From a bacterium (GTDB taxonomy: Bacteria > Patescibacteriota > Minisyncoccia > Minisyncoccales > CG1-02-41-26): DNA of 64,000 nucleotides. The stretch is taken from NCBI GenBank assembly GCA_021162885.1, contig JAGGXV010000024.1, positions 1,024-65,023 on the forward strand, read 5' to 3'. Made by a program: the position numbers and the translations under genes. The notes under the pieces were generated by a model that was not told where the DNA came from, searched no databases, and saw only the letters and a program-made list of their open reading frames with translations. This document shows, piece after piece, positions 3,593 through 64,000 of the stretch. How positions within the stretch are numbered: position 1 is the stretch's first letter; the number at the start of each line of letters is the position of its first letter.

Positions 3593-4915
3593 ATGTACAA
3601 AAAAACTACTTTAAAAAATGGCTTGCGGATTATTACGGTGCCGATGAAAAACACCCAAGCGGTGACTGTTTTAGTAGTGGTGGGGGCGGGTTCTAAATAC
3701 GAAACTAAGCAGGAGAACGGAATTTCCCACTTTCTTGAGCATATGTTTTTCAAAGGAACTAAAAAGCGACCAACTACTTTAAAAATTGCTGAAACTCTGG
3801 ATAGAATTGGGGGTGCCTACAATGCTTTCACCTCAAAAGAATTTACTGGCTTTTGGGCAAAAGTTGATTCCAAGCATTTAGATTTAGCCTTGGATTGGGT
3901 CAGCGATATTTTTTTAAACTCAAAATTAGAGACCAAAGAGATAAAAAAGGAAAAGGGTGTAATTATTGAGGAGATGAATATGTACTTAGATACCCCGATG
4001 AGATATATTGAGGAACTTTTCGAAAAACTGCTTTACGGAGACCAACCGGCCGGTTGGTTAACGATTGGAGAGAAAGAAAATATTTTAAGATTTAAAAGGG
4101 AACAATTTCTTAGGTATTTGAGAAATCATTATTCTGCTTTGAATACTATTGTTTGTGTTGCGGGCAATATAGAGAAATCAAAAATCTCCCGGTCATCTGC
4201 TAGCGCAACCAGCGGGGCAGACAAAAACCAAAAATCAAAAATACAATCTAAAATTCAAAAATATTTCAAAAATATTAAAAAAATACCACCCCGACCAAAG
4301 ATGAAGGTTATAGAAAAGCAAGATAAACCTCGTGTCCTCAGCTATTTTAAAAAAACCGATCAGACCCATCTTTGTTTGGGGGTAAGAGGATATAGCTTAA
4401 ACCATAACCAAAAATATCCTCAAGAAATTTTAGCCACAATTCTTGGTGGCAATATGAGTTCTCGACTTTTCATTTTAATTAGAGAAAAAAAAGGACTTGC
4501 TTATTATATTAAAACTTCCTCAGAATTTTATACTGATAGTGGTTATTTAGTTACTCAAGCTGGTATTCCCCATAAAAATGTGGGAGAAGTTATAAATTTA
4601 ATTTTAAAAGAATATAAAAATCTCCGAGAAAAAAAGATTTCCAAAAGTGAGCTCCAAAAGGCTAAAGATTATTTAAAAGGAAATTTAACTTTGACCTTAG
4701 AATCATCGGATGCCCAAGCCTCCTTTTATGCGGGGCAGGAACTTTTAACCGGGAAAATTTTGACACCCGAAGAAAAATTTGCCAAAATTGATAAAGTCAG
4801 CTTGAGCGATGTTCAAAAAGTGGCTAAAGATATCTTTCGACCCCAAAACTTAAATCTCGCTTTAATTGGTCCTCACAAGTCAAAGAAAAAATTTATTAAA
4901 TTACTAAAATTATGA
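3593..4915 (+). CDS. M16-family zinc metallopeptidase (pitrilysin-like)
   Basis: Inverted zinc motif HxxEH (HFLEH) near the N-terminus and a two-lobed M16 length. TGA stop overlaps the next start (ATGA). Confidence 0.85.
   Translation: MYKKTTLKNGLRIITVPMKNTQAVTVLVVVGAGSKYETKQENGISHFLEHMFFKGTKKRPTTLKIAETLDRIGGAYNAFTSKEFTGFWAKVDSKHLDLALDWVSDIFLNSKLETKEIKKEKGVIIEEMNMYLDTPMRYIEELFEKLLYGDQPAGWLTIGEKENILRFKREQFLRYLRNHYSALNTIVCVAGNIEKSKISRSSASATSGADKNQKSKIQSKIQKYFKNIKKIPPRPKMKVIEKQDKPRVLSYFKKTDQTHLCLGVRGYSLNHNQKYPQEILATILGGNMSSRLFILIREKKGLAYYIKTSSEFYTDSGYLVTQAGIPHKNVGEVINLILKEYKNLREKKISKSELQKAKDYLKGNLTLTLESSDAQASFYAGQELLTGKILTPEEKFAKIDKVSLSDVQKVAKDIFRPQNLNLALIGPHKSKKKFIKLLKL
4175..4263 (+). repeat. 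AAAAATC-type heptamer arrays flanking a GC-rich core, in-frame in the M16 peptidase
   Basis: AAATCAAAAATC ... tcccggtcatctgctagcgcaaccagcggggcagac ... AAAAACCAAAAATCAAAAATACAATCTAAAATTCAAAAAT. Encodes EKSKISRSSASATSGADKNQKSKIQSKIQK. Confidence 0.8.
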
Positions 4916-5973
4916 ACGGAGCTGAAAAAAATTTAGATATTAGCTGGTCAACAATTTTTAAGATTTGTCTGGCAGTCATTTTTCTCTATCTCTTGTATTT
5001 ACTGAGAGACATTATTATCTGGTTTGTCTTCGCTTTGATTATTGGGATTTTATTTAACTTTATTGTTGACTATTTAGAAAAAAAGAGAATTCCTCGAGTG
5101 GCAGGAACAGTAATTTTATACTTCGCGGTTTTTACTGCTTTAGGGTTTTTTATCTACAGGACCGCTCCGGTATTTCTCTCTGAAATTCAAAAATTCAATC
5201 AAAATCTTCCCTTCTATCTCCAAAAAATCTCTCCATTTTTTGAAAAATTAGGAGTTGAAGCTTTTAAAAGCACTGAGAATTTTACCAGAGCTATCCAAGA
5301 AAGTTTAGGGAAGGCGGGAGAGAACATTTTCAGCGCTCTCTTTGCTCTTTTTGGAGGACTGGGGGCAACAGTATTTATAATTTTTCTAGCTTTTTTTATT
5401 TCTTTGGAGAAAAACTTTGGTGAGAGAGTTCTTAAAGTTCTGGCTCCTGAAGGATATCAGGATTATCTTTTTAACCTTTGGCATAGATCAAAACAAAAAG
5501 TCAGTGGTTGGTTTATTTCAAGAGTGATTGGAGCTGTCTTTGTTGGAGGAATGAGTTATCTCATTTTAAGAATTTTAAATGTTGAATATGCTCTGAGTTT
5601 AAGTTTGATGGCTGGAATTTTAGATTTTATTCCAATTGTGGGACCACTTTGTGCAGGAATAATTATCGCTTTAATTGTTGCTTTAACCTCTTTGTTTCAA
5701 GCGGTTTTTGTTTTAGTCAGCTTTGGTATTGTGCAGCTCTTAGAAAACAATCTTATTTTTCCTCTAGCTTTTAAAAAGTTTACTGGCCTTCCTCCAGTTT
5801 TAGTTCTAACTGCTTTTGCAATCGGAGCTAAACTCTGGGGGGTTTTAGGAGCGATTTTGGCTATTCCGTTGGCTGGAGTGATTTTTGAAATTTTGAAAGA
5901 TTACCTAGCTAAAAGAAAGAAAGATTTCTCAGGAGATTTCTCGGAGAGACAGCCTCTAGACAATCAGGGTTGA
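4912..5973 (+). CDS. AI-2E family transporter (PerM/UPF0118-like permease)
   Basis: 353 aa with multiple TM helices. Sequence pattern is typical of the AI-2E/PerM family, including a Gly/Pro-rich C-terminal TM region (IPIVGP..., AIPLAGV). Confidence 0.75.
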   Translation: MNGAEKNLDISWSTIFKICLAVIFLYLLYLLRDIIIWFVFALIIGILFNFIVDYLEKKRIPRVAGTVILYFAVFTALGFFIYRTAPVFLSEIQKFNQNLPFYLQKISPFFEKLGVEAFKSTENFTRAIQESLGKAGENIFSALFALFGGLGATVFIIFLAFFISLEKNFGERVLKVLAPEGYQDYLFNLWHRSKQKVSGWFISRVIGAVFVGGMSYLILRILNVEYALSLSLMAGILDFIPIVGPLCAGIIIALIVALTSLFQAVFVLVSFGIVQLLENNLIFPLAFKKFTGLPPVLVLTAFAIGAKLWGVLGAILAIPLAGVIFEILKDYLAKRKKDFSGDFSERQPLDNQG

Positions 5974-6013
5974 AAAACCAGACCTGGTGGGCTGGAGAGC
6001 TCATTTTTTGAAA

Positions 6014-6721: not shown

Positions 6722-8268
6722 TGACAAAGCAGAAGAAAAAATTTTTTATTTCTACCGCCATAGATTATGTTAACTCGTCTCCTCATGTAGGGCATGCTCT
6801 GGAGAAAATTCAAGCAGATGTTGTAGCCAGATATTATCGGTTTTTGGGTGAGGATGTTTTCTTTTTGACAGGAACAGATGAGAATTCCCTAAAAAATGTC
6901 AGGGCAGCCGAAAAAGAAGGGGTGAGCGTTAAAAAATTAGTTGATAGAAATTCTAAAAAATTTTATGAATTGAAAAAAATTCTCAACCTTTCTTTAGATG
7001 ATTTTATTCGAACCACCGAAGAAAGGCATATCAAAGGTGCTCAAAAACTTTGGCTGGCTTGTCAAAAAGATATTTACAAAAAGAAATATAAAGGGCTTTA
7101 TTGTGTAGGCTGTGAAGCATTTTTAAAAGAAAACGAATTAGTAGATGGTCTTTGCCCGGAACACAAAACAAAGCCCGAATTGATCGAAGAAGAAAATTAT
7201 TTTTTTAAACTCTCAAAGTATCAAAAAGAGTTAAAAAAAATAATTGAAAATGACGAAGTAAGAATCATTCCCCAAGCTCGAAAAAACGAAATTTTGAGTT
7301 TTATAAAACAGGGCTTGGAAGATATTTGTATTTCTCGCGCAGCCGAAAGGGCCCATAACTGGGGGATTGATGTGCCCGGTGATCCTTCACAAAAGATTTG
7401 GGTTTGGTTCGATGCCCTCAGCAACTATATTACAGCTTTAGGTTATACTGAAAATGCTGAGAAATTTCAAGAATTTTGGCAAGAAAATGAACAGAAACTT
7501 CATATTATCGGCAAGGGAGTTTTAAGATTTCATGCAATTTATTGGCCAGCTTTTCTTCTTTCAGCAAATTTAACTTTGCCAAAAACAATTTTTGTCCACG
7601 GTTACATAACTTCTGCCGGACAAAAAATGTCAAAGTCACTTGGAAATGTAGTTGACCCTTTTGAGTTGGTTGAAAAGTATGGCACAGATACTGTCCGTTA
7701 TTTTCTCTTGCGAGAAATTCCTCCAACCGAGGATGGAGATTTTACCTATGAGAAATTTGAAGGGCGATATAACTCGGACTTGGCTTCGGGTTTGGGGAAT
7801 TTGGTAGCCAGAGTTTTAACAATGGCAGAAAAACAAATTTTCAATTTTCAATTTTCAATTTTCAATAAATTTTCAAATCCCAATTTTCAAACATTTATAA
7901 ATAAAAGCAAAAAAAAGTGGCAAACTTCTTTGGATAACTTTAAGTTTAATGAGGCGTTGGCTGTCATTTGGCAATTGATTGGTTTTTGTGACCAGTATAT
8001 TGAAAAAGAAAGACCCTGGGAGAGTAAAAATCAAAAATCAAAAATCAAAAATCAAAAAGTTATTTATAACTTACTAGTTGCTTTAGCCAATATCGCCCAG
8101 ATGCTCCAACCCTTTTTACCCGAAACCTCAGAAAAGATATTTAAACAACTTGGGATTGAGAAGATGAAAGATGTAAGATACAAGATGGAAGATTTAAAAT
8201 TCAAAATCAAAAAACAAAAGCCCCTCTTCCCCCGTCTTTCTGGGGATTGTCCTCGAGCGGAAATTTAG
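6721..8268 (+). CDS. metG: methionyl-tRNA synthetase
   Basis: HIGH-type motif (SPHVGHAL), KMSKS (QKMSKSLGN) and a zinc knuckle (CVGC...CPEH). Confidence 0.95.
   Translation: MTKQKKKFFISTAIDYVNSSPHVGHALEKIQADVVARYYRFLGEDVFFLTGTDENSLKNVRAAEKEGVSVKKLVDRNSKKFYELKKILNLSLDDFIRTTEERHIKGAQKLWLACQKDIYKKKYKGLYCVGCEAFLKENELVDGLCPEHKTKPELIEEENYFFKLSKYQKELKKIIENDEVRIIPQARKNEILSFIKQGLEDICISRAAERAHNWGIDVPGDPSQKIWVWFDALSNYITALGYTENAEKFQEFWQENEQKLHIIGKGVLRFHAIYWPAFLLSANLTLPKTIFVHGYITSAGQKMSKSLGNVVDPFELVEKYGTDTVRYFLLREIPPTEDGDFTYEKFEGRYNSDLASGLGNLVARVLTMAEKQIFNFQFSIFNKFSNPNFQTFINKSKKKWQTSLDNFKFNEALAVIWQLIGFCDQYIEKERPWESKNQKSKIKNQKVIYNLLVALANIAQMLQPFLPETSEKIFKQLGIEKMKDVRYKMEDLKFKIKKQKPLFPRLSGDCPRAEI
7834..7892 (+). 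repeat. (CAATTTT)n heptamer array in metG
   Basis: CAAATTTT CAATTTT CAATTTT CAATTTT CAATAAATTTT CAAATCC CAATTTT CAAAC. Encodes QIFNFQFSIFNKFSNPNFQ. Confidence 0.9.
8026..8058 (+). repeat. (AAAAATC)4 heptamer array in metG
   Basis: Four exact AAAAATC units plus a partial unit. Encodes KNQKSKIKNQK. Confidence 0.9.
8161..8195 (+). repeat. (AAGATGN)5 heptamer array in metG
   Basis: AAGATGA AAGATGT AAGATAC AAGATGG AAGATTT. Encodes KMKDVRYKMEDL. Confidence 0.85.
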
Positions 8269-8272
8269 AAAT

Positions 8273-9037
8273 ATGTTAATAGACACTCATGCTCATTTGG
8301 ATTTTGAGGATTTTGACAAAGACCGGGAAGAAGTAATCCGGCGGGCTTTTGATGGTGGAATAAAAAAGATTATAAATATTGGAACAAATTTTGAACATTC
8401 GAAAAAATCAATTGCTTTGGCTGAAAAGTATGATAACATTTATGCTTCAGTAAGTTTGCATCCAATTGATGTTGAGAAAGAAAAATTTGATGAAAATGAA
8501 TGGTTGGAACTAGCAAGTCATCCAAAGGTAGTGGCGATTGGGGAAACTGGCTTTGATTTCTATCATCAATCGGATAGAAAGAAACAAAAAGAAATTTTTG
8601 AAAAATTAATTAAAATTGCTTGTAAAGTAGAAAAGCCTTTAATCTTGCATAGCCGAGAGGCTGACAAAGAAGTTCTTGAAGTGCTCAGTCACAATGAACT
8701 ACCACCAAAGCCAGGAGTGATTCACTGCTTTGGCCGAAATTATGAAGTAGCAAAAAAATTTTTGGACCTTGGTTTTTTGATTTCTTATACTGGCAATATC
8801 ACTTACAACAAAGAAAGAGCTATTTCTGTTTCTAAAGTGCCTTTAGATAAAATAATGGTTGAGACAGACTGTCCATTTATGACCCCAGCTCCTTTTCGAG
8901 GCCAGCGAAACGAACCTTTTTATGTAAAATACATCGCTCAAAAAATCGCTGAGATTAAAAATGAGAGTTTTGAGAAAGTGGCTGAAGTAACTACTAAAAA
9001 CGCCACCGAACTATTTAATTTGACTAATAAAGATTAA
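8273..9037 (+). CDS. tatD: TatD-family metal-dependent hydrolase/DNase
   Basis: N-terminal DTHAHLD, plus internal HP/HS.. and ETDCPF motifs typical of TatD. Confidence 0.9.
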   Translation: MLIDTHAHLDFEDFDKDREEVIRRAFDGGIKKIINIGTNFEHSKKSIALAEKYDNIYASVSLHPIDVEKEKFDENEWLELASHPKVVAIGETGFDFYHQSDRKKQKEIFEKLIKIACKVEKPLILHSREADKEVLEVLSHNELPPKPGVIHCFGRNYEVAKKFLDLGFLISYTGNITYNKERAISVSKVPLDKIMVETDCPFMTPAPFRGQRNEPFYVKYIAQKIAEIKNESFEKVAEVTTKNATELFNLTNKD

Positions 9038-9082
9038 ATTGGTATAATAAAAAATATTTTCATTAAAAAAGAGGAGGAAATA

Positions 9083-9259
9083 ATGAAAGAAGAAGTATTG
9101 CTAGGGACAGTTCTGGGAATTGTGTTTTTTGCTGGAATGATCTGGCTTAGCTTTAAAACTGGATTATTCCAGGGGTTTATCAAGGAAGTAAAAGGATGGA
9201 AGCAGGACTATCTGGAATGGAAGCTGAAAAGAGAGAAAAAAAGGAGAGCCAGGAAATAA
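9083..9259 (+). CDS. small membrane protein (58 aa), below the ORF-track cutoff
   Basis: Strong SD (GAGGAGGAAATAATG). One TM helix (LLGTVLGIVFFAGMIWL) and a Lys/Arg-rich tail. The stop lies in the loop of a terminator hairpin. Confidence 0.5.
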   Translation: MKEEVLLGTVLGIVFFAGMIWLSFKTGLFQGFIKEVKGWKQDYLEWKLKREKKRRARK

Positions 9260-9272
9260 TCTGGCTCTTTTT
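9246..9272 (+). terminator. intrinsic terminator
   Basis: GAGCCAG-gaaataat-CTGGCTC followed by TTTTT. Confidence 0.7.
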
Positions 9273-9274
9273 GC

Positions 9275-9303
9275 TTGAGAAAAAATAAGAAAAAGTGTAA
9301 AAT
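9275..9303 (+). promoter_or_regulatory. candidate sigma70-type promoter upstream of leuS
   Basis: TTGAGA, 17-nt spacer, TAAAAT. Confidence 0.3.
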
Positions 9304-9424
9304 AAACCTCATAGGAGGAAATTTGGTTGGCCTTTGGCAATCTAAAATTTAAGTTTTTTGCTTTGTAAACACTTTACTAGAAATTTCTCATATAAAGTAA
9401 AAAACTGTGGGATAAAAATCATAT

Positions 9425-11962
9425 ATGGAGTACAATCCACAAAAAATTGAGAAAAAATGGCAGAGAATCTGGGAGAGAGAAGAAATTTTTTTAGCCAAAG
9501 ATTTTTCAAAAAAACCCAAGAATTATATTTTGATTGAATTTCCTTATATTTCCGGAGAAGGCCTGCATGTAGGACATTGTCGGAGTTATACGGCTTTAGA
9601 TGTGGTTAGTCGAAAAAGAAGAATGGAAGGTTTCAATGTTCTATTTCCCATTGGTTGGGATGCTTTTGGCTTACCTACTGAAAATTTTGCGGTCCGAACG
9701 GGAATTCATCCCACAGTCATCACTAAGAAAAACATATCTAAGTTTAAAAAACAGCTCAAGAGGTTAGGCCTCTCTTTTGATTGGACTCGAGAAATTAATA
9801 CTTCTGACCCGGAATATTACAAATGGACTCAGTGGATATTTTTGCAACTTTTCAAGCATGGCTTAGCTTACAAAGCCAAAATCCCAATCAACTGGTGTCC
9901 TTCTTGCAAGATTGGCTTAGCAAATGAAGAAGTTATTGAGGGGAAATGCGAAAGGTGCGGAACGAAAGTTACCCGAAAAGAGAAAGAACAATGGATGTTA
10001 AGGATTACCAAATACGCTGAAAGATTACTCAGAGATTTAAATAAAGTCAATTACCCAGAAAGAGTAAAGATATTGCAGAAAGATTGGATAGGGAAAAGTT
10101 GCGGCGTGGAAATTAAATTTCCCCTTGCAACTTTTGGGCGAAACAAACGCGAAACTGAAAACGCAGAACTACGCGAAACCTTCATAAATGTTTTTACTAC
10201 CAGAATTGATACAATTTTTGGGGCTACTTATTTGGTGTTGGCGCCAGAACACCCCATAATTGGAAAGCTTAAAGCTCAAATTTCAAATCTCAAGAGTATT
10301 GAAGAGTATATAGAAAAAGCAACAAGGAAATTGGAAAGAGAAAGAATTTCCGAAACCAGAGAAAAAACTGGAATAAAGTTAGAGGGGGTGATGGCGGTTA
10401 ATCCAGCCACTGGGAAAGAGATTCCGATTTTTGTAGCCGATTATGTTTTAATGCACTATGGGACAGGAGCGATAATGGGAGTGCCCTGTCACGACGAAAG
10501 AGATTTTGAGTTCGCTCGCCAGCATAATCTTCCGATGATAAAAGTAATTGAACCCAAAAAGAAAGAGAAAGAATTAACTTTTGCTCTCTCTAATGGTAGG
10601 TATCAGCACCCTTATACTGGCGAAGGGATTTTAGTAAATTCTGAAAGATTTGACGGGATGAAATCTGAGGTAGCTAGAGAAAGAATTTTTCAATGGCTAA
10701 AGCGCAAAAGTTTGGTAAAAAAAGCGGTTCATTATAAATTAAGAGATTGGGTTTTCTCTCGTCAGAGGTATTGGGGAGAGCCAATCCCGCTTGTTTTCTG
10801 TGAAAAATGTGGTTGGGTGCCGGTGTCTGAGAAAGATTTACCTGTAAAGTTGCCGCGAGTCAAAAATTACAAACCAACTGAAACAGGAGAGTCGCCTTTA
10901 GCCAGCGTTAAAAGTTGGGTTAACACAAAATGTCCAAAATGCGGAGGACCGGCTCGGAGAGAAACAGATGTTATGCCCAATTGGGCAGGAAGTAATTGGT
11001 ATTACCTTGCATATACTATGTTTAAAAGTCAAAAGTCAAAAGTCAAAAGTCAAAAGTTTAAGTGGGATGAAAGAAGGATTAAATATTGGATGCCGGTTGA
11101 TTGGTACAATGGAGGTATGGAACATACTACTTTGCATCTTTTATATTCTCGTTTTATCTATAAATTTTTATGGGATATTGGAGCTGTCCCAAAATCTTTA
11201 GAACCCGAACCTTATAAAAAACGAACTTCTCACGGAATAATTTTAGCTGAAGGCGGGGTGAAAATGTCCAAGTCAAAAGGGAATGTAATCAATCCTGATG
11301 AGGTGGTAAAGCAATATGGGGCTGATACTTTAAGATGTTATGAAATGTTTATGGGTCCTTTTGAGCAAGCAATTGCCTGGGATATCAAAGGGGTAAGGGG
11401 GGCAAAGAGGTTTCTTCAAAAAGTCTGGGAACTTTTTGAAAAATCCCAAATCCCAAGCGCCAAATCTCAAACAAATCCCAAACCCCAAATCCCAAACCCC
11501 AAACTTAAAAAGATTTTACATAAAACCATCAAGAAAGTTTCAGAGGATATTGAGAATATGAAGTTTAATACAGCAATTAGTGCAATGATGGAGTTTTGTA
11601 ATGCTTGGCAGGAAAATCCAAAAGGATTAAGAAAAAAGGATTTAAAAGATTTTTTAAAAATTTTATCTCCTTTCGCACCCCATTTAACAGAAGAGCTTTG
11701 GCAAAAGCTAGGAAACAAAAAAAGCATCTTTTTAAAAAAATGGCCAAAATATGACCCAAAGCTGATTGAAGAAGAAAAAATAACTTTGGTAATTCAAATT
11801 AATGGTAAAGTCCGCGAGAAAATAGAAGTTGAATCAGGAACTTCAGAGAATAAAGCCAAAGAGCTTGCTCTCTCTCAACCAAAAATCCAAAAATGGCTCC
11901 TCAATAAAAAAATCAAAAAAACAATCTTTATCAAAGACAAACTAATCAACTTTGTGATATAA
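9425..11962 (+). CDS. leuS: leucyl-tRNA synthetase
   Basis: HIGH variant (GLHVGHCRSY), KMSKS (VKMSKSKGN), a CP1 editing-domain region and zinc-binding Cys pairs. Confidence 0.95.
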   Translation: MEYNPQKIEKKWQRIWEREEIFLAKDFSKKPKNYILIEFPYISGEGLHVGHCRSYTALDVVSRKRRMEGFNVLFPIGWDAFGLPTENFAVRTGIHPTVITKKNISKFKKQLKRLGLSFDWTREINTSDPEYYKWTQWIFLQLFKHGLAYKAKIPINWCPSCKIGLANEEVIEGKCERCGTKVTRKEKEQWMLRITKYAERLLRDLNKVNYPERVKILQKDWIGKSCGVEIKFPLATFGRNKRETENAELRETFINVFTTRIDTIFGATYLVLAPEHPIIGKLKAQISNLKSIEEYIEKATRKLERERISETREKTGIKLEGVMAVNPATGKEIPIFVADYVLMHYGTGAIMGVPCHDERDFEFARQHNLPMIKVIEPKKKEKELTFALSNGRYQHPYTGEGILVNSERFDGMKSEVARERIFQWLKRKSLVKKAVHYKLRDWVFSRQRYWGEPIPLVFCEKCGWVPVSEKDLPVKLPRVKNYKPTETGESPLASVKSWVNTKCPKCGGPARRETDVMPNWAGSNWYYLAYTMFKSQKSKVKSQKFKWDERRIKYWMPVDWYNGGMEHTTLHLLYSRFIYKFLWDIGAVPKSLEPEPYKKRTSHGIILAEGGVKMSKSKGNVINPDEVVKQYGADTLRCYEMFMGPFEQAIAWDIKGVRGAKRFLQKVWELFEKSQIPSAKSQTNPKPQIPNPKLKKILHKTIKKVSEDIENMKFNTAISAMMEFCNAWQENPKGLRKKDLKDFLKILSPFAPHLTEELWQKLGNKKSIFLKKWPKYDPKLIEEEKITLVIQINGKVREKIEVESGTSENKAKELALSQPKIQKWLLNKKIKKTIFIKDKLINFVI
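10138..10180 (+). repeat. (GCGAAAC)-type heptamer array in leuS
   Basis: GCGAAAC aaac GCGAAAC TGAAAAC GCAGAAC tac GCGAAAC. Encodes GRNKRETENAELRET. Confidence 0.75.
10271..10295 (+). repeat. AAAGCTC/AAATTTC/AAATCTC heptamer array in leuS
   Basis: Three 7-nt units read directly. Encodes KAQISNLKS. Confidence 0.7.
11024..11058 (+). repeat. (AAAAGTC)4 heptamer array in leuS
   Basis: Four exact units plus AAAAGTT. Encodes KSQKSKVKSQKF. Confidence 0.9.
11441..11505 (+). repeat. (AAATCCC/AAACCCC)n heptamer array in leuS
   Basis: AAATCCC AAATCCC AAGCGCC AAATCTC AAAC AAATCCC AAACCCC AAATCCC AAACCCC. Encodes KSQIPSAKSQTNPKPQIPNPK. Confidence 0.9.
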
Positions 11963-11980
11963 TTGAAAATCAAACATTCT

Positions 11981-13675
11981 ATGGAAAAAGTTTTATCAAA
12001 AAAAGTTGGTGAGAAAGTGATTCTTTTAGGAAATGAGGCGATTGTTAGGGGAGCTTTGGAATCAGGGGTTCAGTTTGTTTCTACTTATCCGGGTACTCCC
12101 GCTTCGGAAATTGGCAACACCTTCTATAAAATCTCAAATCTCAAATCTCAAATCTCAAATCTGAATTTATATTTTGAGTTTTCAACCAATGAGAAAGTTG
12201 CTTTGGAAGCTGGGGCTGGTGCTAGCTTTTCTGGTCAGAGAACGTTAGTTGCAATGAAGCATTTTGGACTAAATGTTGCTTCTGATTTTTTAATAACTTT
12301 AGTGTATTCTGGAGTCCGGACAGGAATGGTTATTGTGGTTGCTGATGACCCGGGTTGTTCAAGTTCGGCTCAATCAGAACAAGATTCAAGAGCTTACAGT
12401 TATTTAGCCCATATTCCCACTTTAACTCCCGCTACTCCTCAAGAGTGCAAAGATTTTACAAAATTTGCTTTCGAACTTTCAGAAAAATTTAAAATTCCAG
12501 TGATGGTTCGAGAAACAACCAGAGTGGCTTTGCAAAGTGGCATCGTTAAGTTAGGAAAGATTGTTCAGGGTAGAAGGAAAGGAAAATTTGTTAAAGATCC
12601 TCACCAGTTTGTGACAATGCCCCCAAGAGTTCTTGAGATGAAAAAAGAACTTTTAGAGAAGATTAGAAAGATAAAAAATGAAGTTTCCGAGAAAAGCCCT
12701 ACGAATTACGAATCTAAACGAATTACAAATAAAAAAATTGGAATTGTTACTTCCGGGGTGTCTTATTTGTATACAATGGAGGCACTGAAAGAATTTAATC
12801 TCAATTTACCGGTGTTGAAACTGGGATTTTTTTATCCTTTGCCAGAGAAAAAGATTAAAAAATTTATTAAATCTATAAAAAAAGTTTTAATAGTTGAAGA
12901 ACTTGAGCCTTATATAGAAAGGGAGGTTAAGAGATTCGCTAAAGACGCTAACCCAAAACTTCAAATTTTTGGTAAAAATCTATTACCAGAGATTGGAGAG
13001 TTAAGGCCAGAAATTGTTCTCCGAGCCATTGCTAAAATTACTAACAGAAAATTAAAAATTGAAAATTCAATAAAAATTAAAAATTTAAAATTGAAAATTC
13101 CTCGCCGAACTCCCCAGCTTTGTCCAGGTTGCCCTTATTGGTTGGTGTTTTCAGGAATAAAAACCGCTTTGAAAAAAATGAAATTGAGCGAAAAAGATGT
13201 TGTTTTCGGTGGTGAAATTGGTTGTTATATGTTAGCTGGTCTTTCGCCTCATAATATACAAGATTATCTTTTTTGTATGGGTTCTGATATGGGGATAGCC
13301 CACGGGATTAAAAAAGCGACTTTTAATAAACAAAAACTTATTGCTTTTGTCGGCGATTCTTCATTCTTCCATGCTGGCATTCCTGCTTTAATCAATGCAG
13401 TTCACAACAAATCAAATCCTTTGGTTATTATTATGGATAATCAGACAACGGCTATGACCGGCCACCAGCCTCACCCCGGCATTGAAAAAACCGGCATGGG
13501 GGAGGCCTCTCCCAAAATAAAAATTGAAGACATTGTTCGAGCTTGCGGAGTTAAAAACCTTAAAGTTATTGATCAAGGAAACCAAAAAGAATTTGTCAAA
13601 ACCGTCAAAGAATTTTTGCAAAATAAAACCGTTTCAGTAATCATCGCCCGAAGGCCTTGCATATTTGTTAAATAG
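11981..13675 (+). CDS. iorA: indolepyruvate:ferredoxin oxidoreductase, alpha subunit
   Basis: GNEAIVRGALESGV..STYPGTPASEI N-terminus and TPP-binding GDSSFFHAG...MDNQTTAMTGHQ. ATG at 11981 is preferred to the TTG at 11963. Confidence 0.85.
   Translation: MEKVLSKKVGEKVILLGNEAIVRGALESGVQFVSTYPGTPASEIGNTFYKISNLKSQISNLNLYFEFSTNEKVALEAGAGASFSGQRTLVAMKHFGLNVASDFLITLVYSGVRTGMVIVVADDPGCSSSAQSEQDSRAYSYLAHIPTLTPATPQECKDFTKFAFELSEKFKIPVMVRETTRVALQSGIVKLGKIVQGRRKGKFVKDPHQFVTMPPRVLEMKKELLEKIRKIKNEVSEKSPTNYESKRITNKKIGIVTSGVSYLYTMEALKEFNLNLPVLKLGFFYPLPEKKIKKFIKSIKKVLIVEELEPYIEREVKRFAKDANPKLQIFGKNLLPEIGELRPEIVLRAIAKITNRKLKIENSIKIKNLKLKIPRRTPQLCPGCPYWLVFSGIKTALKKMKLSEKDVVFGGEIGCYMLAGLSPHNIQDYLFCMGSDMGIAHGIKKATFNKQKLIAFVGDSSFFHAGIPALINAVHNKSNPLVIIMDNQTTAMTGHQPHPGIEKTGMGEASPKIKIEDIVRACGVKNLKVIDQGNQKEFVKTVKEFLQNKTVSVIIARRPCIFVK
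12129..12163 (+). repeat. (AAATCTC)4 heptamer array in iorA
   Basis: Four exact units plus AAATCTG. Encodes KISNLKSQISNLN. Confidence 0.9.
12701..12730 (+). repeat. (ACGAATT)-type array in iorA
   Basis: ACGAATT ACGAATC taa ACGAATT ACAAAT. Encodes TNYESKRITNK. Same word as the intergenic hairpin elements at 14255 and 28554. Confidence 0.8.
13047..13099 (+). repeat. (GAAAATT)n heptamer array in iorA
   Basis: GAAAATT AAAAATT GAAAATT CAATAAAAATT AAAAATT TAAAATT GAAAATT. Encodes KLKIENSIKIKNLKLKI. It is the complement of the CAATTTT family. Confidence 0.85.
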
Positions 13676-14272: not shown

Positions 14273-14330
14273 ACCACGAATTACAAATAAACATAAATAT
14301 TCGTAATTCGATAAAATTCGTAATTCGGGA
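14255..14330. repeat. ACGAATT/AATTCGT nested-hairpin element (copy 1), probable terminator
   Basis: Inner stem 14277-14289 / 14298-14310 (12 of 13 pairs). Outer stem AATTACGAAT 14261-14270 / ATTCGTAATT 14316-14325. The 29-mer ATATTCGTAATTCGATAAAATTCGTAATT (14297-14325) is identical to 28584-28612. Confidence 0.85.
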
Positions 14331-51858: not shown

Positions 51859-54800
51859 ATGTTTCAAAAAAAGTTCTCGCTTTCAAAAAAGGTTGCTATT
51901 TTCTTTATTTTAATCTTTGTTTTGGGAATTGGGATTTACTTTTCAGCAAGTAAAGTAAAAGCGGCCAGTCCTGGAGATGTGATAATTAACGAGGTAATGT
52001 GGTCTGGCACTTCTTCAAGCACAGCTGATGAATGGATTGAATTGAGAAATACTTCAACAACCACCGCGATTGATATTGCCAATTGGACTTTAGAAAATGT
52101 AATTCCCGGCGCTACCCTTACGGTGACTACCACTAACAATCTTTGTTCAACTACCACTATTTCTGCTGGGGGTTATTTTTTGATTTCAAATTTCGCAAGT
52201 TCCTCTTCGGCTATCAATGTTTATGGTCAATGTGTAACTTCAACCATTAATTTAATTGACGATTATGCTGCCAACGGAGATTTAATTTTAAAAGATGATT
52301 CTGGTACAGTGATTGACCAAACGCCCTCTACAACCACTTGTCCAAATTGGCCAGGAGGCGCTACAGGTACTCAAGCCGTAGCCACCTCTTCAATGGCAAG
52401 GGACTGGAACTACGGAACAGGCACTTCAACCGCAAGCTGGCATACCTCAATTATTGCTACTGGTTGGGATAGTGGAATTCCAGACAAAGGAACTCCCGGT
52501 ACTTACAACGGCTATCCGGTTTCAGGCACAATTAGCCAATTAAATGCCACCACCAGTGGAACTTTCTATATTATCTTGCAAGAGCATGCTTCCTCTACCA
52601 GTAATCTTGCCAGTTATCAGCAAGCGGCTACCGGCACTTATCAAATGCATCTTTTGGCTTCAAGTGAAGGCAGCAGCAACCAAAAATACGACTTTTTGGC
52701 TTTCCGAGATATTAATGGAAACGGCTCTTATGATGCAAATTATGAGGTAGTCAGATTGCTAAATAATAGTAATAATGGCTACACTTTAGATAGCGATGGT
52801 TTAAGTAATATAGATTTCAAAACTGCCCTAACTCCAATAATTTCCAATGTTACCAGCCCCACTCATATTGGAGACACCATCACAATTTCCGGTTCTTATT
52901 TTGGTCAAAGCGCCACAACTTCTGAAGGTAAGGTTTATTTCCCAGGTGGAGCGAATTTAGAAGGCCAAATTTCCTCTTGGTCCTCAACAAGCATTCAAGT
53001 TATTGTTCCTCAATCGAGCCAGACCGGCCAAATCAGAGTGGTATTGGGTGGTTGGGCTCAAGCGACCACTTCTTTGACTGTCAAACCAAAAATTACTTCA
53101 GCAGTAGCCACCCCAAAATCCCTGAAATTGAATTTTGATAGTTTCCTTGATGGAACCACAGCCAGTAATTTAGCAAATTATACTTTGTATTCTCCAGCTT
53201 CAACTCAAATTGATTTAACTGATGCCTGGACAGAGTTCCGAGGCAATGAGGTTTATATTAAAGGAATTTCTTTGACCTTGGGCGATTATTTCCGAATTAA
53301 TCCAAGTTCTAATATCAAAGGAGCCAGCGGAACCGCCCTTGATTCAAATTATTACGCTACCGGAACAGTGGTGGCTGCTCCTTCAATAAGTTACATTTAC
53401 AAAAAAGGGCAATCTACTACTACCAATTATGGTAATGTCGGGGATACGGTAGTGATTGTTGGCACAAATTTCGGTTCAGCCACAGGCACTGTCTATTTTT
53501 CACCCGGCCCTCCGAGCAGTGGTCAACCCCAAGAACCCGTCTCTTCAACTTCTACTTTATGGACAGCAACTTCAATTGAAGCACCAGTGCCTGCCGGCGC
53601 TAAGACCGGTCCGGTTTTCATCGTTACCGCTCAGGGAGTTGAAAGCGAATTTTCCCGCAGCGCTTTCTTTAATGTTTTGACCAATCTTAATTATAGAATT
53701 TTAAACCCGGACGGAAACTCAATTTCAACTACAACCGCCAGAATTGTTATTTGTTCTATGGGAGGCCCGGTTTTGCATTATGTTGGCGATGGGAACACAA
53801 ACAGTTCAACTACTTACAATTCAGCAACCAAGGTCTATACTGTTCACAATGTTCCTTCCGAAGGATTTAATTGGGTTTTTGATAGTTCTGGCATTTATGT
53901 GGTTGCCAAGGGCCAACCAATAAATTCCGATGCTACGACGACCTTCACTTTGGCCACCTCAACCACAAAAATTTCAGGCAACATCAGCAATGCTAGAGCA
54001 AACAGCACCATTGTTGTTTGGGCAGACCCGGTTGAAGGGACGGGAGAAAATATGGAATGGCGAGAGCCGGTTTTTGTCAAAACAAACGCTTCAGGAGCTG
54101 GTTCTTACAATATAGGGCTTTCAGCAACCGGAACTTACAATGTGGGAGTTGAAGACCCAGGATTTAGCGGGGGTTCTGCTTCCAACCAGAAAATTTCACC
54201 AGCCAACCAGGAAGTTTCAGCAACAACAACCAGTGGAGTAAGTAATGTTAATTTTGCTTTCTTAACCGCCACCAGAAGGATTAGAGGAAAAATCAGCAAA
54301 GCGGCAGGTCAAGGTTTTGATATTGGTCCGGGAGTTGAGGCATTTCATGTTTACGCTTACCAGCCAAAAGAAAACGGCTTGCACGCTTCGGCAATGCCGA
54401 GTTCTTCTGGCTATTTTGATCTTTATGTTAGACCGGGCATTTATATTGTAGGTGTTGGCGGGCCTGATGTACCTTCAGCAGTTGAGAAAAAAATTGAGGT
54501 TCTATCATCAGACAGCGATTTTGCCACCTCAGATTCAGCAGTTGATATAACTTTGGTTATTGAAGCACCCGATGAATATATTGAAGGTCAGGTTACCGAT
54601 TCAAGCGGCAATGGAATTTCTGGCGCTTCAATTTTCGCTTGGTCGTCCTCGGGACCTGGGGGCGGTCAGGCCTTTACCAATAGCGCCGGCTATTACAAAC
54701 TTTATGTTTCACCAGGCACTTACACTTTAGACGGTTTTGCTCCTAATTTTGGAAAGTTAAGTCAAAGAAGCGGGATTACGGTTTCTGACGGCTGCGCAAA

Positions 54801-57402
54801 TTCTGGCACCTGTCCAACAGTTGATTTTGGCGTTTCCTCGGAATTGGCAACCATTTCTGGCTATGTAAAAAAGAACAACGCTTCTTCTTCTGATATGGAG
54901 GTTTGGATAACTTATGGAGAGACCGGTTATGGAATTAACAGAACAAAAACTGATAGCAATGGAAATTACACTTTAAGAGTTCCTTATGGCTCTGGGTATT
55001 ATTTACATGTTGCTCAACCGGGAGCAGGTGAGATTTACAAGGTCAGCTTGCCAACTTTTTCAAGCACAGCAACTTCAACAACTAAAAATGTTTCGGTAAA
55101 TACCGCAACTATTTATGTTCAGATTTCGCCAAAGTCAGCTTTCTCTAAGGCTTTTGTTGAAGTTTACGGAGTTTCTGGTAAAGGATTTTCCGATCAAGAT
55201 ATTGCTACCAGCGGGGCCTCCTTTCGCAAATACGCAATTGAAGTGCCAAAACCAACTTCCGGCACTTACACCTACAATGTCCGAGGTGGAGTTCTTGGCT
55301 ACGGTCCTCTGACAGCCACCACAACCAGTGTCACTTCAGGTACTGTTTCAAAAACGATATCTTATGACATAACGAGCAATGTTGGGGCAATTTCAGGCAG
55401 CGTTACCCTTTCTGGTACAGGAACTACAACTGACGCTTATGTCTGGGCAGCGAATTCTTCAGGTCATGCCGGAGCCCAGGTTGATTCTTCTGGCAATTTC
55501 TCTTTTAAGGTAAAGGCGGGCACTTACGATGTCGGTATTGACAAACCCGGCTACATTGGCAGTCTGACAACAAGCGTTGTGGTTACAGCCGGAGCTACGA
55601 CTACAGTCAATGATTTAACATTGACGCGGGCTGGTTCTTCAATTTCGGGAACGGTTTACAAATCAGGAACAGAGGAAGCAAACGCTTGGGTCTGGGCGAC
55701 AAACGGGTCTGGCGGCTGGGTTGGCGCTGAAGCCGATGGAGATGGCAACTTTACTTTAGAGGTCACCAGCGGTAACTGGACAATCGAGGCCGCTTCAGAA
55801 GGTTACGAAAGCGTGCCGGTTAATGTTGCTGCTGGAACAACTGGACTCTCTATTAACTTAACAAACGCTATTTCCGGCTACAGCGCAGAGGCACCAACTG
55901 TTGCCCCAATTGTGCCAAAAACCGGAGGAGTTATCCAGGGTTCTGACGTAAAAATTGAAGCTCCAGAAGGAGCTCTTGACGCTCAAGATACCAATACCGG
56001 TAGAGTAAGTATTGAAAAGACAACCAGCGTTCCCAGAAGTAATGATGCCAAACCTCTTGGCAATATGGCTTACGAAATCAGTGTTTCCAATGCTTCTGGC
56101 ACCCCAATTACCGTTTTAAATGATTCTATTACCATCTCTTTGACTTATTCAGCCAGCGACTTGTCTTCGGCTGGCATAACTCAAACAGAAGCCCTTGACT
56201 TGAGTTTGGGTTATTTCGACTCTACCTTAAACAAATGGGTAACTATTCCAACTAACGTCGCCACCACTACTGGTGGAGGAGTGATTTTCACCGGGACAAC
56301 TGAGCACTTGTCAGATTTTGCTCCTCTTAAATCTTCAGGAGCCAATCCTCCTTCAACCCCAACCGGTCTTACCGCCACTGCCGGAGACAGCCAGGTGACT
56401 TTAAGTTGGAATAGTGTTTCGGGAGCCAGTTATTACGATATTTACCGAAAAAGCGATTCCACTTATCCTTTTTATGCTTCAACCACTGACACTTCTTATA
56501 CTGATACTGGTTTGACCAATGGCACAACCTATTATTATAAAGTTTCCGCTCTAAACAGCGATGGCGACGAATCAGCAGCAACTGAGGCGGTTTCAGCCAC
56601 TCCTCAGGCCTCTGGCGGAGGAGCAGTTGTCTCTGGTGGTGGAGTAACTGGAGATACCACTGCTCCTTCAATTTCTGATATCAGCTCTAAAGTTGGCACA
56701 AGTACTGCCACCATCACTTGGCAGACATCTGAAGCCTCTTTAACTTGGATAATTTATGGCACTTCAACCGATTATGGTCTTGAGGAGAAAACCACAACCT
56801 ATTTAACTTCCCATTCAGTAACCTTAACTGACTTGACTCCAGAAACCACTTATCACTATCAGGTGAAATCGGAAGATTCAGCTGGCAATGTTGGAGAATA
56901 CACCGACAAAACTTTCACCACTTTGGCTTTGGGAGAGGTGTCAGAAGTAGTAGGGGAAGGGGGAGAAGAAATTGAAATACCAACCGTAACCTTTGAAAAA
57001 CCAATCGCTGAGATGACCATTGAAGAAATCAAAGAAAAAATTGCTGAAATTCAAGAGGCCATTGCTACTTTGCAAGCTCTCTTGGCTCAAATTGAAGAGA
57101 AAATTTTTGAAGGAATTCCAGCTGGCTTTAGTTTTGAAACCAACCTCAAATATGGAATGGTCTCCGATGATGTCAAGTATTTGCAAATTGTCTTGAATTC
57201 TGACCCAGAAACCAGATTGGCCGAGACCGGAATTGGCTCTCCAGGAAACGAAACCAACTACTTCGGACCGCTAACTCGAGCAGCCGTGATCAAATTCCAA
57301 GAAAAATACTCAGAGGATGTCTTAGCCCCTTGGGGATTGACCGAAGGTACTGGCTTTGTCGGGAGAACAACCCGAGCGAAATTGAATGAACTATTAAAAT
57401 AA
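51859..57402 (+). CDS. giant peptidoglycan-anchored surface protein (1847 aa): LTD, IPT/TIG-like, multiple CarboxypepD_reg-like domains, 2x FN3, coiled coil, PG-binding
   Basis: Signal-anchor and LTD signature ([24 protein letters not shown]). At least four units of the type ISG.V...G....A.V.A.......DS.GN(Y/F).L.V..G.Y. FN3 signature ([27 protein letters not shown]; [13 protein letters not shown]). C-terminal coiled coil plus [22 protein letters not shown]. Confidence 0.85.
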
Positions 57403-62449: not shown

Positions 62450-62524
62450 AAAAAGCCCTTATTACATTGGGAAAGATCTCAAAAAAACTATAGAATGGTA
62501 TTTAAGTAATCAAACTAACTAAAT

Positions 62525-63310
62525 ATGGAAATAAAAAATATTCCTACAGTTATATTATGCGGAGGTAAAGGAATGCGTTTGCTTGAGGAAACTGAATTTA
62601 AGCCAAAACCAATGGTAGAAATAGGCGGAAAACCAATTTTGTGGCATATTATGAAAATATACGCTCATTATGGACATCGTGATTTTATTCTAACTCTCGG
62701 GTATAAAGGTGAGTATATCAAAGATTATTTCTTAAAACAGAAATATTACGAGGCAGATTTTCTTTTGAACACTTCAGAAAAAAATGTAAACTTTTTAACA
62801 AACGGCGCTTTAGAAAAAGAAAATTTTAACATTATTTTTGCTGACACCGGATTAGAAACCCCTCATGGGGAGCGGTTATTGAAAGTTAAAAATTACATAA
62901 AAACTGATTTATTTATGGTTACTTATGGCGATGGTGTTGCCGATATTGACATATCAAAACTAGTTGATTTCCATAAATCCCATGGAAAAATAGGAACAGT
63001 TACCGGTGTTCGTCCAATATCAAGATGGGGATTTATCAATACCGATGAGCAAAACCGCATTACTCAATTCAGTCAAAAACCAAGACTTTATGATTATGTT
63101 AACGGTGGCTTTATGGTTTTTAAAAAAGAATTTTTAAATTATCTAAAGCCGGGAGATATGATAGAGGATGGCTTAGCAAGATTAATTCCTGAAAGACAAT
63201 TAACTTTATACAAACATGAAGGTTTTTGGTACGGTATGGACACTTATAGGGACTTTTTGTTTTTAAACCGACTTTGGGAAAAAGACCCCAAGTGGAAAAT
63301 ATGGGAATAA
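62525..63310 (+). CDS. rfbF: glucose-1-phosphate cytidylyltransferase
   Basis: VILCGGKGMRL...KPKPMVEIGGKPILWHIMKIYAHYG matches RfbF closely. Confidence 0.9.
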   Translation: MEIKNIPTVILCGGKGMRLLEETEFKPKPMVEIGGKPILWHIMKIYAHYGHRDFILTLGYKGEYIKDYFLKQKYYEADFLLNTSEKNVNFLTNGALEKENFNIIFADTGLETPHGERLLKVKNYIKTDLFMVTYGDGVADIDISKLVDFHKSHGKIGTVTGVRPISRWGFINTDEQNRITQFSQKPRLYDYVNGGFMVFKKEFLNYLKPGDMIEDGLARLIPERQLTLYKHEGFWYGMDTYRDFLFLNRLWEKDPKWKIWE

Positions 63311-64000
63311 TGAAAAACCAACATCAAACATCCAACATCAAGTATCAAACAGTTCTTGTAACCGGGGGTGCTGGATTTATTGGAAGCCACCTTACCGACA
63401 AATTAGTGGAACAAGGCTATGATGTTGCAGTGATTGACAATTTATCTTCTGGTGAAGAAGAAAACTTAAACCCCAAAGCCAAATTTTACAAGATTGATGT
63501 TCGGGATAAAAAAATCCTTCAAATTTTAAAAAAAGAAAAAATAGAATCCGTTTTTCATTTAGCAGCAAGACCACTTGTTGAAAAAGTTTACAACAATCCT
63601 TTCGAGGCGTTTGAAATCAATATAATGGGAACAGTCAATATCCTTGAGTCCTGCCGGCTAAAAGGAGATTTAAAGTCAATTGTTGTTGTTTCTTCCGATA
63701 AAGCCTACGGTAAAAATAAAAATCTGCCTTACAAAGAAACAACTCCTTTAGGCGGCGATCATCCTTATGAAGTCTCAAAAGCAGCTGCTGATTTAATAGC
63801 TCAATCTTATTTTAAAACCTATAACTTACCAGTTGCTGTCGCTAGATTTAGCAATACTTTTGGACCTCGCGACTATAATTTCGGCCGAATTATTCCAGGG
63901 ATTTTTGAAGCGATTATAAAAAACAAAGAGCTTTTAATCAGAAGCGATGGGAAAATGATTAGAGAATATACTTTTGTGGAAGATATTGTTGATGGCTGTA
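63310..64000 (+). CDS. NAD-dependent epimerase/dehydratase family protein (partial, runs off the window)
   Basis: The ATG overlaps the rfbF stop (TAATG). VLVTGGAGFIGSHL and YxxxK (HPYEVSKAAADL). Paralogous to the 59992 gene. Not in the ORF track because no stop lies within the window. Confidence 0.8.
   Translation, partial: MKNQHQTSNIKYQTVLVTGGAGFIGSHLTDKLVEQGYDVAVIDNLSSGEEENLNPKAKFYKIDVRDKKILQILKKEKIESVFHLAARPLVEKVYNNPFEAFEINIMGTVNILESCRLKGDLKSIVVVSSDKAYGKNKNLPYKETTPLGGDHPYEVSKAAADLIAQSYFKTYNLPVAVARFSNTFGPRDYNFGRIIPGIFEAIIKNKELLIRSDGKMIREYTFVEDIVDGC
63320..63350 (+). repeat. (AACATCN)n heptamer array at the 5' end of the last gene
   Basis: AACATCA AACATCC AACATCA AGTATCA AAC. Encodes NQHQTSNIKYQ ahead of the Rossmann fold. 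Confidence 0.85.

Follow-up and report, generated by a model that had tools for sequence, protein, structure and literature searches.

Heptanucleotide tandem arrays in housekeeping genes of a Patescibacteria clade, a dense instance of a known prokaryotic microsatellite phenomenon

How do tandem arrays of a seven-nucleotide (7-nt) unit, whose period is not a multiple of three, come to lie in frame within housekeeping genes and, as inverted pairs, in the hairpins between them? The question is raised by a 64,000-nt window, which is the whole stretch of DNA analysed here (assembly GCA_021162885.1, contig JAGGXV010000024.1, positions 1,024 to 65,023), from a bacterium of the Patescibacteria, also called candidate phyla radiation (CPR). 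The window is AT-rich, with a GC content of 0.34-0.38 across most of its length, and 92.5% of it is coding; other loci fetched for comparison carry L-numbers. The arrays are a dense CPR instance of the known heptanucleotide simple sequence repeat (SSR) phenomenon and not a new kind of element. The reading favoured here, with a probability of roughly 0.6, is that they are slippage-type heptanucleotide microsatellites, which arise in place and are filtered by selection.

The initial annotation of the window had described a genome-wide family of such arrays, and Tandem Repeats Finder gives numerous period-7 rows where that annotation had placed them. When perfect arrays of three or more copies are counted exactly, the window has five at period 7 and none at periods 5, 6 and 8-15, and no perfect period-7 array is present in 50 dinucleotide shuffles. 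The five perfect arrays have 4.4-4.9 copies and are 31-34 nt long each. When imperfect arrays are allowed (at least 16 matches in 21 lag comparisons, with the expectation taken from block shuffles), 15 period-7 arrays are observed against 0.97 expected, and periods 5, 6 and 8-11 are at background. Since the observed counts exceed those of the shuffles and the other periods stay at background, the enrichment is real and specific to seven.

Of the 15 arrays, 11 are in coding sequence (CDS) and four are intergenic, where the non-coding share of the window would predict 7.5% (binomial p 0.02), and the density of arrays per base is about fourfold greater in intergenic DNA than in CDS. Because the window is 92.5% coding, the arrays are relatively enriched between genes, which agrees with earlier surveys, and a preference for coding sequence does not hold relative to coding density. 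A stricter cut (at least 17 of 21 matches) gives 14 period-7 arrays, 13 of which lie within 1-30000, corresponding to 43 per 100 kb there and 2.9 per 100 kb in 30001-64000 (p 0.0004). The latter part of the window holds core genes, including ftsA, ftsZ and clpB.

The host genes proposed at the outset are confirmed by Pfam and are those of an M16 peptidase, MetRS (metG), LeuRS (leuS), a protein similar to the POR/IOR alpha subunit (iorA), TopA, Pth and YbeY; all the host open reading frames (ORFs) are open. Sixteen arrays had been listed, 12 of which are solid (five perfect and seven good imperfect ones, the latter with a lag-7 identity of 0.67-0.81), and the remaining four are weak or were mis-described. 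The arrays in or directly beside genes are the following.

4175-4263, plus strand: interrupted (AAAAATC)n in the M16 peptidase gene, left part 4175-4186 and right part 4223-4263
4187-4222, plus strand: 36-nt GC-rich non-repeat insert nested in the M16 array
7835-7902, plus strand: (CAATTTT)n in metG, perfect over 7836-7866, encodes IFNFQFSIFNKFSNPNFQ
8026-8058, plus strand: perfect (AAAAATC)4.7 in metG, encodes KNQKSKIKNQK
8161-8211, plus strand: imperfect (AAGATGN)n near the 3' end of metG
10264-10293, plus strand: decayed (AAATCTC/AAAGCTC)n in leuS (LeuRS site 2)
11024-11057, plus strand: perfect (AAAAGTC)4.9 in leuS (LeuRS site 3), encodes KSQKSKVKSQK
11441-11504, plus strand: (AAATCCC/AAACCCC)n in leuS (LeuRS site 4), in the linker preceding the anticodon-binding domain
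12129-12162, plus strand: perfect (AAATCTC)4.9 in iorA
13047-13099, plus strand: imperfect (GAAAATT/AAAAATT)n in iorA
19452-19480, minus strand: weak, decayed AAAAGTC-like periodicity in topA, score 0.64
20056-20091, minus strand: weak AAAAATC-like periodicity in topA, score 0.59
26146-26177, minus strand: imperfect (GGAATTA)n on the sense strand of pth, unit not stop-free
29774-29805, plus strand: perfect (CAAATGC)4.6 in ybeY, forming the C-terminal tail of YbeY past the end of the Pfam domain
63320-63351, plus strand: imperfect (AACATCA)n, directly downstream of a gene that ends at 63310

Translation of the arrays gives peptides with a period of seven residues (KNQKSKIKNQK, KSQKSKVKSQK, KISNLKSQISNL and NAKCQMPNAKI), which confirms the view that these low-complexity patches are DNA-level repeats read in three phases. 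Positions 10138-10180 of leuS, also listed at first, were rejected as a tandem array, as the GCGAAAC words are spaced and the lag-7 identity is 0.42 (rank p 0.08).

A contig of another assembly (L001) aligns with window positions 8991-12926 with four mismatches and no gap (99.9% identity), and reproduces six arrays with identical unit numbers at 0.1% divergence. As this independent assembly aligns without a gap, the arrays are not an assembly artefact. The heterogeneity of unit number for which the annotation had suggested to look is absent from L001, the sole near-identical strain compared.

Beyond this strain, the closest LeuRS sequences are 80%, 78% and 75% identical, all from metagenome-assembled genomes (MAGs) of the Patescibacteria group, with Nealsonbacteria among the named matches, and the best match of the MetRS protein among metagenome contigs is 71% identical. 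Five syntenic loci of about 22 kb each (L002, L003, L006, L007 and L008) were compared with the window, and period 7 is the sole enriched period in each of them. They hold 5, 2, 2, 0 and 7 perfect arrays per ~22 kb, respectively; with imperfect arrays included, the densities per 100 kb are 40-61 in L002, L003 and L008 and 13-18 in L006 and L007, and 43 in positions 1-30 kb of the window. The wider Patescibacteria, represented by 80 more distant loci (900 kb), have 5-8 arrays per 100 kb, and period 7 is the commonest non-triplet period among their imperfect arrays; perfect arrays of three or more copies are more numerous there at period 4 (23 arrays) than at period 7 (13 arrays). The counts in the relatives and in this wider census thus make the period-7 phenomenon group-wide, with a strength some 6-10 times greater in the clade to which the window belongs.

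Codon alignments of the M16 peptidase, MetRS, LeuRS, the POR/IOR alpha-like protein and TopA reveal how single sites differ among these genomes. Eight protein sites have arrays in at least two lineages, and seven of the eight show at least two different units. Hot spots, where several lineages have arrays with differing units, are MetRS sites 1 and 2, LeuRS sites 1, 3 and 4, and IorA sites 1 and 3. The unit at one site differs between lineages, each array is internally homogeneous and the length is often unchanged, therefore the arrays bear the mark of concerted evolution, with turnover in place at permissive sites, and do not fit a fixed family of inserted elements. The unit "families" into which the arrays had been sorted are in this sense not borne out, as one protein site bears differing units across the relatives.

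In metG, the region 7835-7902 is a hot spot, with other units in L002 and L007 and with the CAATTTT unit plus a 75-nt insert in L008, and the array at 8026-8058 is identical in L002, absent from L003 and L007 and replaced in L008 by an AAATCCC-type array. LeuRS site 2 has the same length in 23 of 23 homologues, with a consensus LKSQIxNxK that is the translation of (AAATCTC)n, and its DNA array is perfect in L002 and decayed elsewhere. LeuRS site 3 is exactly seven residues longer than in L003, L006, L007 and the enzyme of T. thermophilus; its unit is AAAAGTC in the window and L008 and (AAAACTC)n in L002, and an unrelated patescibacterium (L032) has (AAAAATC)5 there. LeuRS site 4 is conserved in length over six close genomes, L002 being one residue shorter, with AAATCCC/AAACCCC in the window and L007, AAAACTC in L002, and AAAATCC plus AAAACCC in L006. 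In iorA, the L003 counterpart of the array at 12129-12162 is interrupted by a 30-nt GC-rich insert, and L003 has the same peptide as the window at 13047-13099, a segment of which L002, L006 and L007 have a shorter version. The M16 array is a 57-nt (19-aa) insertion found in the window only, as five relatives are without it, and the topA periodicity at 20056-20091 lies inside a 36-nt (12-aa) insertion, again found in the window only, which three relatives lack. The idea of lineage-specific insertion holds for most arrays, which are at indel-variable sites and are lineage-specific or lineage-variable, and fails for LeuRS 10264-10293 and 11441-11504, which are length-conserved. An AlphaFold2 model of LeuRS from a 23-sequence alignment, intended for surface-loop mapping, was too poor (mean predicted local distance difference test score 56, predicted template modelling score 0.35), therefore a sequence alignment with T. 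thermophilus LeuRS (1H3N) was used, in which the arrays fall at insertions or variable linkers.

Two sites that are empty in a relative hold a near-seed. The MetRS gene of L007 has AGTAAAAAGCAAAAAG, also given as AAAAAGCAAAAAG, where the window has AGT(AAAAATC)4.7, and the M16 gene of L008 has AATGAAAAATT where the window has AATCAAAAAT... Whole multiples of three units are found at two insertions, which are the seven added residues of LeuRS site 3 and the M16 insertion, whose 57 nt are 36 + 21. A strict 21-nt quantisation of length changes was considered and dropped, as it fits two sites and fails in general. The LeuRS homologue P0008 (888 aa) contains a segment of about 23 residues, SNRGSP.YI.DSRQSRSSTKSGQ, twice (alignment columns ~880-980), which suggests a duplicated in-frame insertion in a relative.

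Every unit of the perfect CDS arrays, in the window and in its relatives, is stop-free in all three sense phases, and on the antisense strand most of them do have stops. The arrays are oriented with the gene because their units must avoid stops in all three sense phases. Stop-containing units (AAGATGA, GAAAATT and GGAATTA) occur in imperfect arrays only, with the offending copies altered, such as at metG 8161-8211, where the AAGATGN unit includes TGA and the variable seventh base abolishes the in-frame stop. The stop filter alone was rejected as the source of the A-richness, as stop-free heptamers have an average A content of 0.285 and are thus not A-rich, so the filter explains orientation and not composition. 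The A-rich composition may come from the tolerance of loops rich in K, N, Q and S or from a mutational preference.

In each of four arrays, a unique GC-rich insert (30-75 nt) has the same unit on either side. These inserts are at 4187-4222 of the window, 13701-13730 of L003 (iorA), ~9895-9933 of L008 (iorA) and ~4761-4835 of L008 (MetRS). They are missing from the relatives, have no similarity to each other or to the rest of the loci, and fold with z-scores of -1.9 to +0.1. A small hairpin element or a repeated family was rejected as their identity, given that they have no shared sequence and no significant folding.

Between genes, the inverted pairs of the same words reported in the initial annotation are present, as AATTTTC/GAAAATT at 20738-20828 and as ACGAATT at 14252-14335 and 28548-28620. 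The intergenic hairpins, together with the copies of a palindromic element, are the following.

12697-12735, plus strand: half copy (5' arm) of the palindromic element, in frame within the POR/IOR alpha-like gene
14252-14335, plus strand: copy A of the palindromic element, ~70 nt, with CGAATTACGAAT words
20737-20828, minus strand: long imperfect hairpin from the dprA stop to the topA start, with arms (CAATTTT)n and (GAAAATT)n
28548-28620, plus strand: copy B of the palindromic element, directly after the hisS stop codon
28963-29025, plus strand: (ATTTTGC)n-like array inside a 12-nt inverted repeat

The four intergenic hairpins all fold better than shuffled sequences, with z-scores of -2.9 to -5.2, and the two full palindromic copies have -4.7 and -5.2. 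None of the hairpins matches an Rfam covariance model, a tRNA-Leu at 16719-16803 being the sole match in the window. Equivalents of the dprA-topA hairpin, which ends at the topA start codon, are found in L003 (21245-21390) and L008 (15837-15955); L002, which is among the closest relatives (80% LeuRS identity), has a 12-nt dprA-topA spacer and no hairpin (21470-21505). The CGAATTACGAAT word occurs 10 times in the window against 0.32 expected, in two full hairpins and one half copy. Positions 12701-12730 of iorA, which had been taken for an (ACGAATT)n array, were rejected as such and belong to this half copy, in which the words are spaced by 17-18 nt. Among the fetched loci the word is found only in the near-identical L001 and in the unrelated L133, and at the position of copy A the genes of L002 and L003 overlap and leave no spacer. 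Because the word is nearly absent elsewhere and these relatives have no spacer at copy A, the element acts as small dispersed palindromic repeats do. A GGAGG that directly precedes the ATG at 14339 is part of the 3' arm of copy A. The intergenic region 28550-29268 (720 nt), which is unusually long for this genome, holds copy B together with a (GAACGAGTGT)2 repeat and the (ATTTTGC)n array.

Other features of the window include a GAG/GAA-rich triplet repeat (period 3, 12 or 15) at 48630-48677, about 155 codons from the start of a 1151-aa ORF; in contrast to the heptamers, this repeat is a commonplace acidic low-complexity tract that stays in frame. Three giant proteins, predicted to be at the surface, are encoded at 40285-45225 (minus strand, 1646 aa), 48167-51622 (plus strand, 1151 aa) and 51859-57402 (plus strand, 1847 aa), and LTD, PKD, fn3, CarboxypepD_reg and PG-binding domains are distributed across them. 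The stretch of 48-57 kb has a GC content of 0.43-0.44, above that of the rest of the window, and is without heptamer arrays. The tRNA-Leu(CAA) gene (16718-16803, minus strand) overlaps the 5' end of a mechanically called ORF, 16305-16760, so the real start of this AdoMet decarboxylase-like gene is probably further downstream.

Heptamer arrays of the same type are found far from the Patescibacteria. A scan of 185,579 species genomes for (AAAAATC)4, which requires at least 28 nt, matched at least 120 stretches in Flavobacteria, cyanobacteria, Akkermansiaceae, Planctomycetes, Acidobacteria, Saccharibacteria, Patescibacteria and others. Among the 80 matches listed, 40 are inside long ORFs (14 of the 15 in CPR and 26 of the 65 in other bacteria); these 40 in-ORF arrays have 30-38 nt, and the listed arrays outside long ORFs have 28-86 nt. 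Other heptamer arrays lie close by in the matched loci (24 in 466 kb), where period 7 is again the commonest. Since matches within long ORFs are found in many phyla, in-frame heptamer arrays are not peculiar to this genome. In a Phycisphaeraceae genome (L012) the array is in PepA, and an 89%-identical homologue has it too; the next homologue, which is 63% identical and strongly diverged, is 30 nt shorter. An inverted pair, (AAAGTGA)4.4 and (TTTTCAC)4.4 separated by 30 nt, is also present in L012.

If the arrays are microsatellites of the slippage type, short A-rich proto-repeats would grow into arrays in place through strand slippage in replication or repair, under a mutational bias especially strong in this Patescibacteria clade, and the arrays would have no function of their own. 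Within CDS, an array would survive when it alters the length by a net multiple of three, when its unit is stop-free in the three sense phases or the offending copies are mutated, when it is located in a loop, linker or tail that tolerates added residues and, probably, when it encodes a hydrophilic peptide. Cycles of contraction and re-expansion may keep each array homogeneous and let the unit drift between lineages, which would be seen as concerted evolution. The same process in intergenic DNA would generate inverted pairs and thereby hairpins, and one element of this kind has reached at least 2.5 copies.

Several observations weigh against this explanation. A slippage event was not observed, as the unit numbers of L001 are the same as those of the window. 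Orthologues do not, as a rule, differ in length by multiples of 21 nt; the loops at MetRS site 2 have 8-16 residues, with five more in the window than in the nearest array-free relatives, and in the three relatives that lack the 36-nt TopA insertion no seed for it is visible. The perfect arrays cluster at 31-34 nt, and this preferred length does not come from the reading frame alone, because intergenic arrays of Xanthomonas and Nostoc also favour about four units (PMC4692102). The GC-rich inserts enclosed by four arrays and the 15-fold density gap between the two halves of the window point in the same direction. Moreover, (AAAAATC)4.6 arrays of 32-34 nt sit abruptly in long ORFs at a local GC content of 52-67% in L079, L012, L023, L075 and L019, which belong to Verrucomicrobiota, Phycisphaeraceae, Alcaligenaceae and Chloroflexota, and such abrupt A-rich arrays in coding sequence of 60-67% GC are awkward for purely local seeding.

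Much of this evidence would suit a dedicated or mobile process that in one step places blocks of 4.5-5 units (~30-36 nt) in DNA of either kind, coding or non-coding. Such a process could be a polymerase or primase that copies a 7-nt template over and over, an element that leaves 7-bp duplications of its target, or a break repair that captures foreign DNA as well. The narrow lengths of the perfect arrays in the window and its relatives (a cluster at 31-34 nt) and of the 40 in-ORF (AAAAATC)n arrays among the matches listed (30-38 nt in every case) agree with it, as do the abrupt A-rich arrays in GC-rich genes, the seedless TopA insertion, the Phycisphaeraceae PepA homologue shorter by 30 nt and not by 21, the same unit on both sides of the unique inserts, and the intergenic arrays of Xanthomonas and Nostoc, in which about four units are favoured (PMC4692102). 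However, near-seeds are present at two empty sites, many units are used and they differ by lineage at a single site, arrays of 21-25 nt exist too, and the lower bound of the length distribution in the (AAAAATC)4 scan is set by its own requirement of at least 28 nt. Furthermore, no transposase, reverse transcriptase or similar enzyme is found among the ~33 window ORFs scanned with Pfam, and the nested inserts are unrelated in sequence and show no significant folding. One-step insertion is therefore considered unlikely. Its broadest form, a widespread process that writes ~32-nt A-rich heptamer blocks of 4.5-5 units in one step, sometimes captures a GC-rich segment, and is especially active in this CPR clade and active as well in GC-rich genes of unrelated phyla, is doubtful by a somewhat greater degree.

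Selection for use, in which K/N/Q/S-rich peptides would serve solubility, RNA binding or spacing, the hairpins would be regulators or terminators and the DNA periodicity would be secondary, has little probability. It would be favoured by the dprA-topA hairpin, which is at the same place in the window, L003 and L008, by the MetRS (AAAAATC)4.7 array, which is identical in the window and L002 in a gene with only 80% DNA identity, by the conservation of LKSQIxNxK over 23 LeuRS homologues, and by the GGAGG that the 3' arm of copy A offers to the next gene. Even so, the repeats are perfect at synonymous positions too, close relatives carry different units and peptides at one site (e.g., hydrophobic FNFQFS and basic KNQKSK), the sites are often empty in relatives and coincide with insertions or variable linkers when compared with T. 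thermophilus LeuRS, the topA hairpin is wholly missing in L002, and no Rfam family matches any hairpin. Contingency loci, in which the gain or loss of one unit toggles the host gene as in phase variation, are very improbable. By arithmetic a change of a single 7-nt unit does shift the frame, and phase-variable heptanucleotide tracts are known, for instance in Haemophilus influenzae (PMC2651432, PMC8262952). The hosts here, however, are single-copy housekeeping genes for aminoacyl-tRNA synthetases, TopA, Pth and YbeY, plus an M16 peptidase, and not dispensable surface or modification genes. The synthetase, TopA, Pth and YbeY genes cannot be switched off. The arrays are also short (at most five perfect units) and located mid-gene or at the 3' end, and no frameshifted allele is seen, the ORFs being intact in the window, L001 and the five relatives. 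As for errors of sequencing or assembly, low-complexity repeats are prone to mis-assembly in metagenomes, but the gap-free reproduction of six arrays in an independent assembly, the open frame of every host gene, the analogous arrays at the same sites in relatives from different projects and assemblers, and an array length (31-34 nt) much shorter than a sequencing read leave this explanation a nearly negligible probability. Phase variation and artefact are both effectively excluded.

Should the arrays indeed be slippage-type microsatellites, this clade would be a clear natural example of a non-triplet microsatellite process that shapes proteins under extreme coding density, in which arrays persist only as stop-free forms compatible with three units in permissive loops. 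Through them, aminoacyl-tRNA synthetases, TopA, Pth and YbeY would gain low-complexity segments that differ by lineage, and part of the odd insertions in CPR proteins would be accounted for. Annotators and phylogeneticists would have to treat such segments with caution, as mutational noise under concerted evolution, and the arrays could be used as markers for strain typing. If instead blocks were written in one step, bacteria would have a general source of in-frame protein insertions that had so far gone unrecognised. The preferred length of ~32 nt, the A-rich units in GC-rich genes and the nested inserts bear on the old question of why seven is favoured in bacteria.

Among known repeats, the short tandemly repeated repetitive (STRR) sequences of heterocystous cyanobacteria have CCCCAGT, TTGGTCA and CAACAGT as characteristic units. 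Elhai et al., in Genome Res (2008), are said to have described small dispersed repeats that lie within tandem heptamers of Nostoc and resemble the short inserts inside heptamer arrays reported here; the present inserts differ in being unique, of 30-75 nt and without significant structure. STRR repeats and the GGGGA(T/C)T repeats of Nostoc are, like the present arrays, tandem heptamers dispersed over a genome, and about one third of the Nostoc arrays are intragenic (PMC4692102). Unlike the carriers of STRR repeats, the host here is not a heterocystous cyanobacterium, its best LeuRS relatives being MAGs of the Patescibacteria/Nealsonbacteria type, and unlike the Nostoc units, those of the window are A-rich and have no G-runs, so a rationale based on G-quadruplexes is inapplicable. 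In Xanthomonas, GGGAATC arrays favour about four units and some of them form convergent inverted pairs (PMC4692102). They share with the arrays described here this number of units, the hairpin-capable inverted pairs and the variation of length and sequence among close species, and differ in having one dominant unit and in that 7-11% of the arrays are intragenic (PMC4692102). The units of STRR, Nostoc, Xanthomonas and Beggiatoa repeats have no tandem occurrence in the window.

The TTTTGAT heptads of the Vibrio cholerae ctxAB promoter (bioRxiv 10.1101/2021.05.14.444153) are a reverse-complement rotation of AAAAATC, the unit found here in metG, the M16 gene and, weakly, topA. In V. cholerae they form a regulatory promoter array bound by transcription factors (bioRxiv 10.1101/2021.05.14.444153), whereas here the unit is in coding sequence. 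TAACTGA repeats of marine Beggiatoaceae, cyanobacteria and Bacteroidetes are similar in that 2-6 copies of a heptamer recur at numerous loci in a patchy set of lineages, and differ in being a single unit, with forward stop codons, that is mostly located directly upstream of start codons (PMC4679880). The ~70-nt CGAATTACGAAT hairpin, with 2.5 copies in 64 kb and empty orthologous positions, resembles elements similar to REPINs (repetitive extragenic palindromic doublets forming hairpins) or miniature inverted-repeat transposable elements (PMC3116915), from which it differs by the half copy in frame in a gene. The ~33 window ORFs scanned with Pfam contain no RAYT (REP-associated tyrosine transposase) or other transposase.

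The nearest counterpart is the general class of prokaryotic heptanucleotide SSRs, which, as reported from Mrazek et al. 2007 by PMC4679880 and PMC4692102, are the most abundant class of long SSRs in most prokaryotic genomes, with slippage tied to the polymerase footprint as the proposed cause. By the same accounts, units that are multiples of three are most often the ones in coding regions (PMC4679880, PMC4692102), and in what these accounts relate of the surveys CPR genomes are not covered. Full-text literature searches found no paper in which SSR or heptanucleotide terms occur together with CPR or Patescibacteria. The description of the arrays in the initial annotation is largely accurate, and its interpretation is right in part. 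The novelty that the initial annotation had seen in in-frame heptamer arrays is nevertheless overstated, as they belong to a known class of long SSRs and at least 120 (AAAAATC)4 stretches exist in many phyla. With the class as so described the window has in common tandem 7-nt repeats, many units per genome, an excess specific to period 7 and slippage as the proposed cause; it departs from those surveys in that 11 of its 15 arrays are in frame in CDS and that their density is about 6-10 times that of the wider relatives. What is instructive in this CPR instance are the hot spots, the concerted evolution and the stop-free filter.

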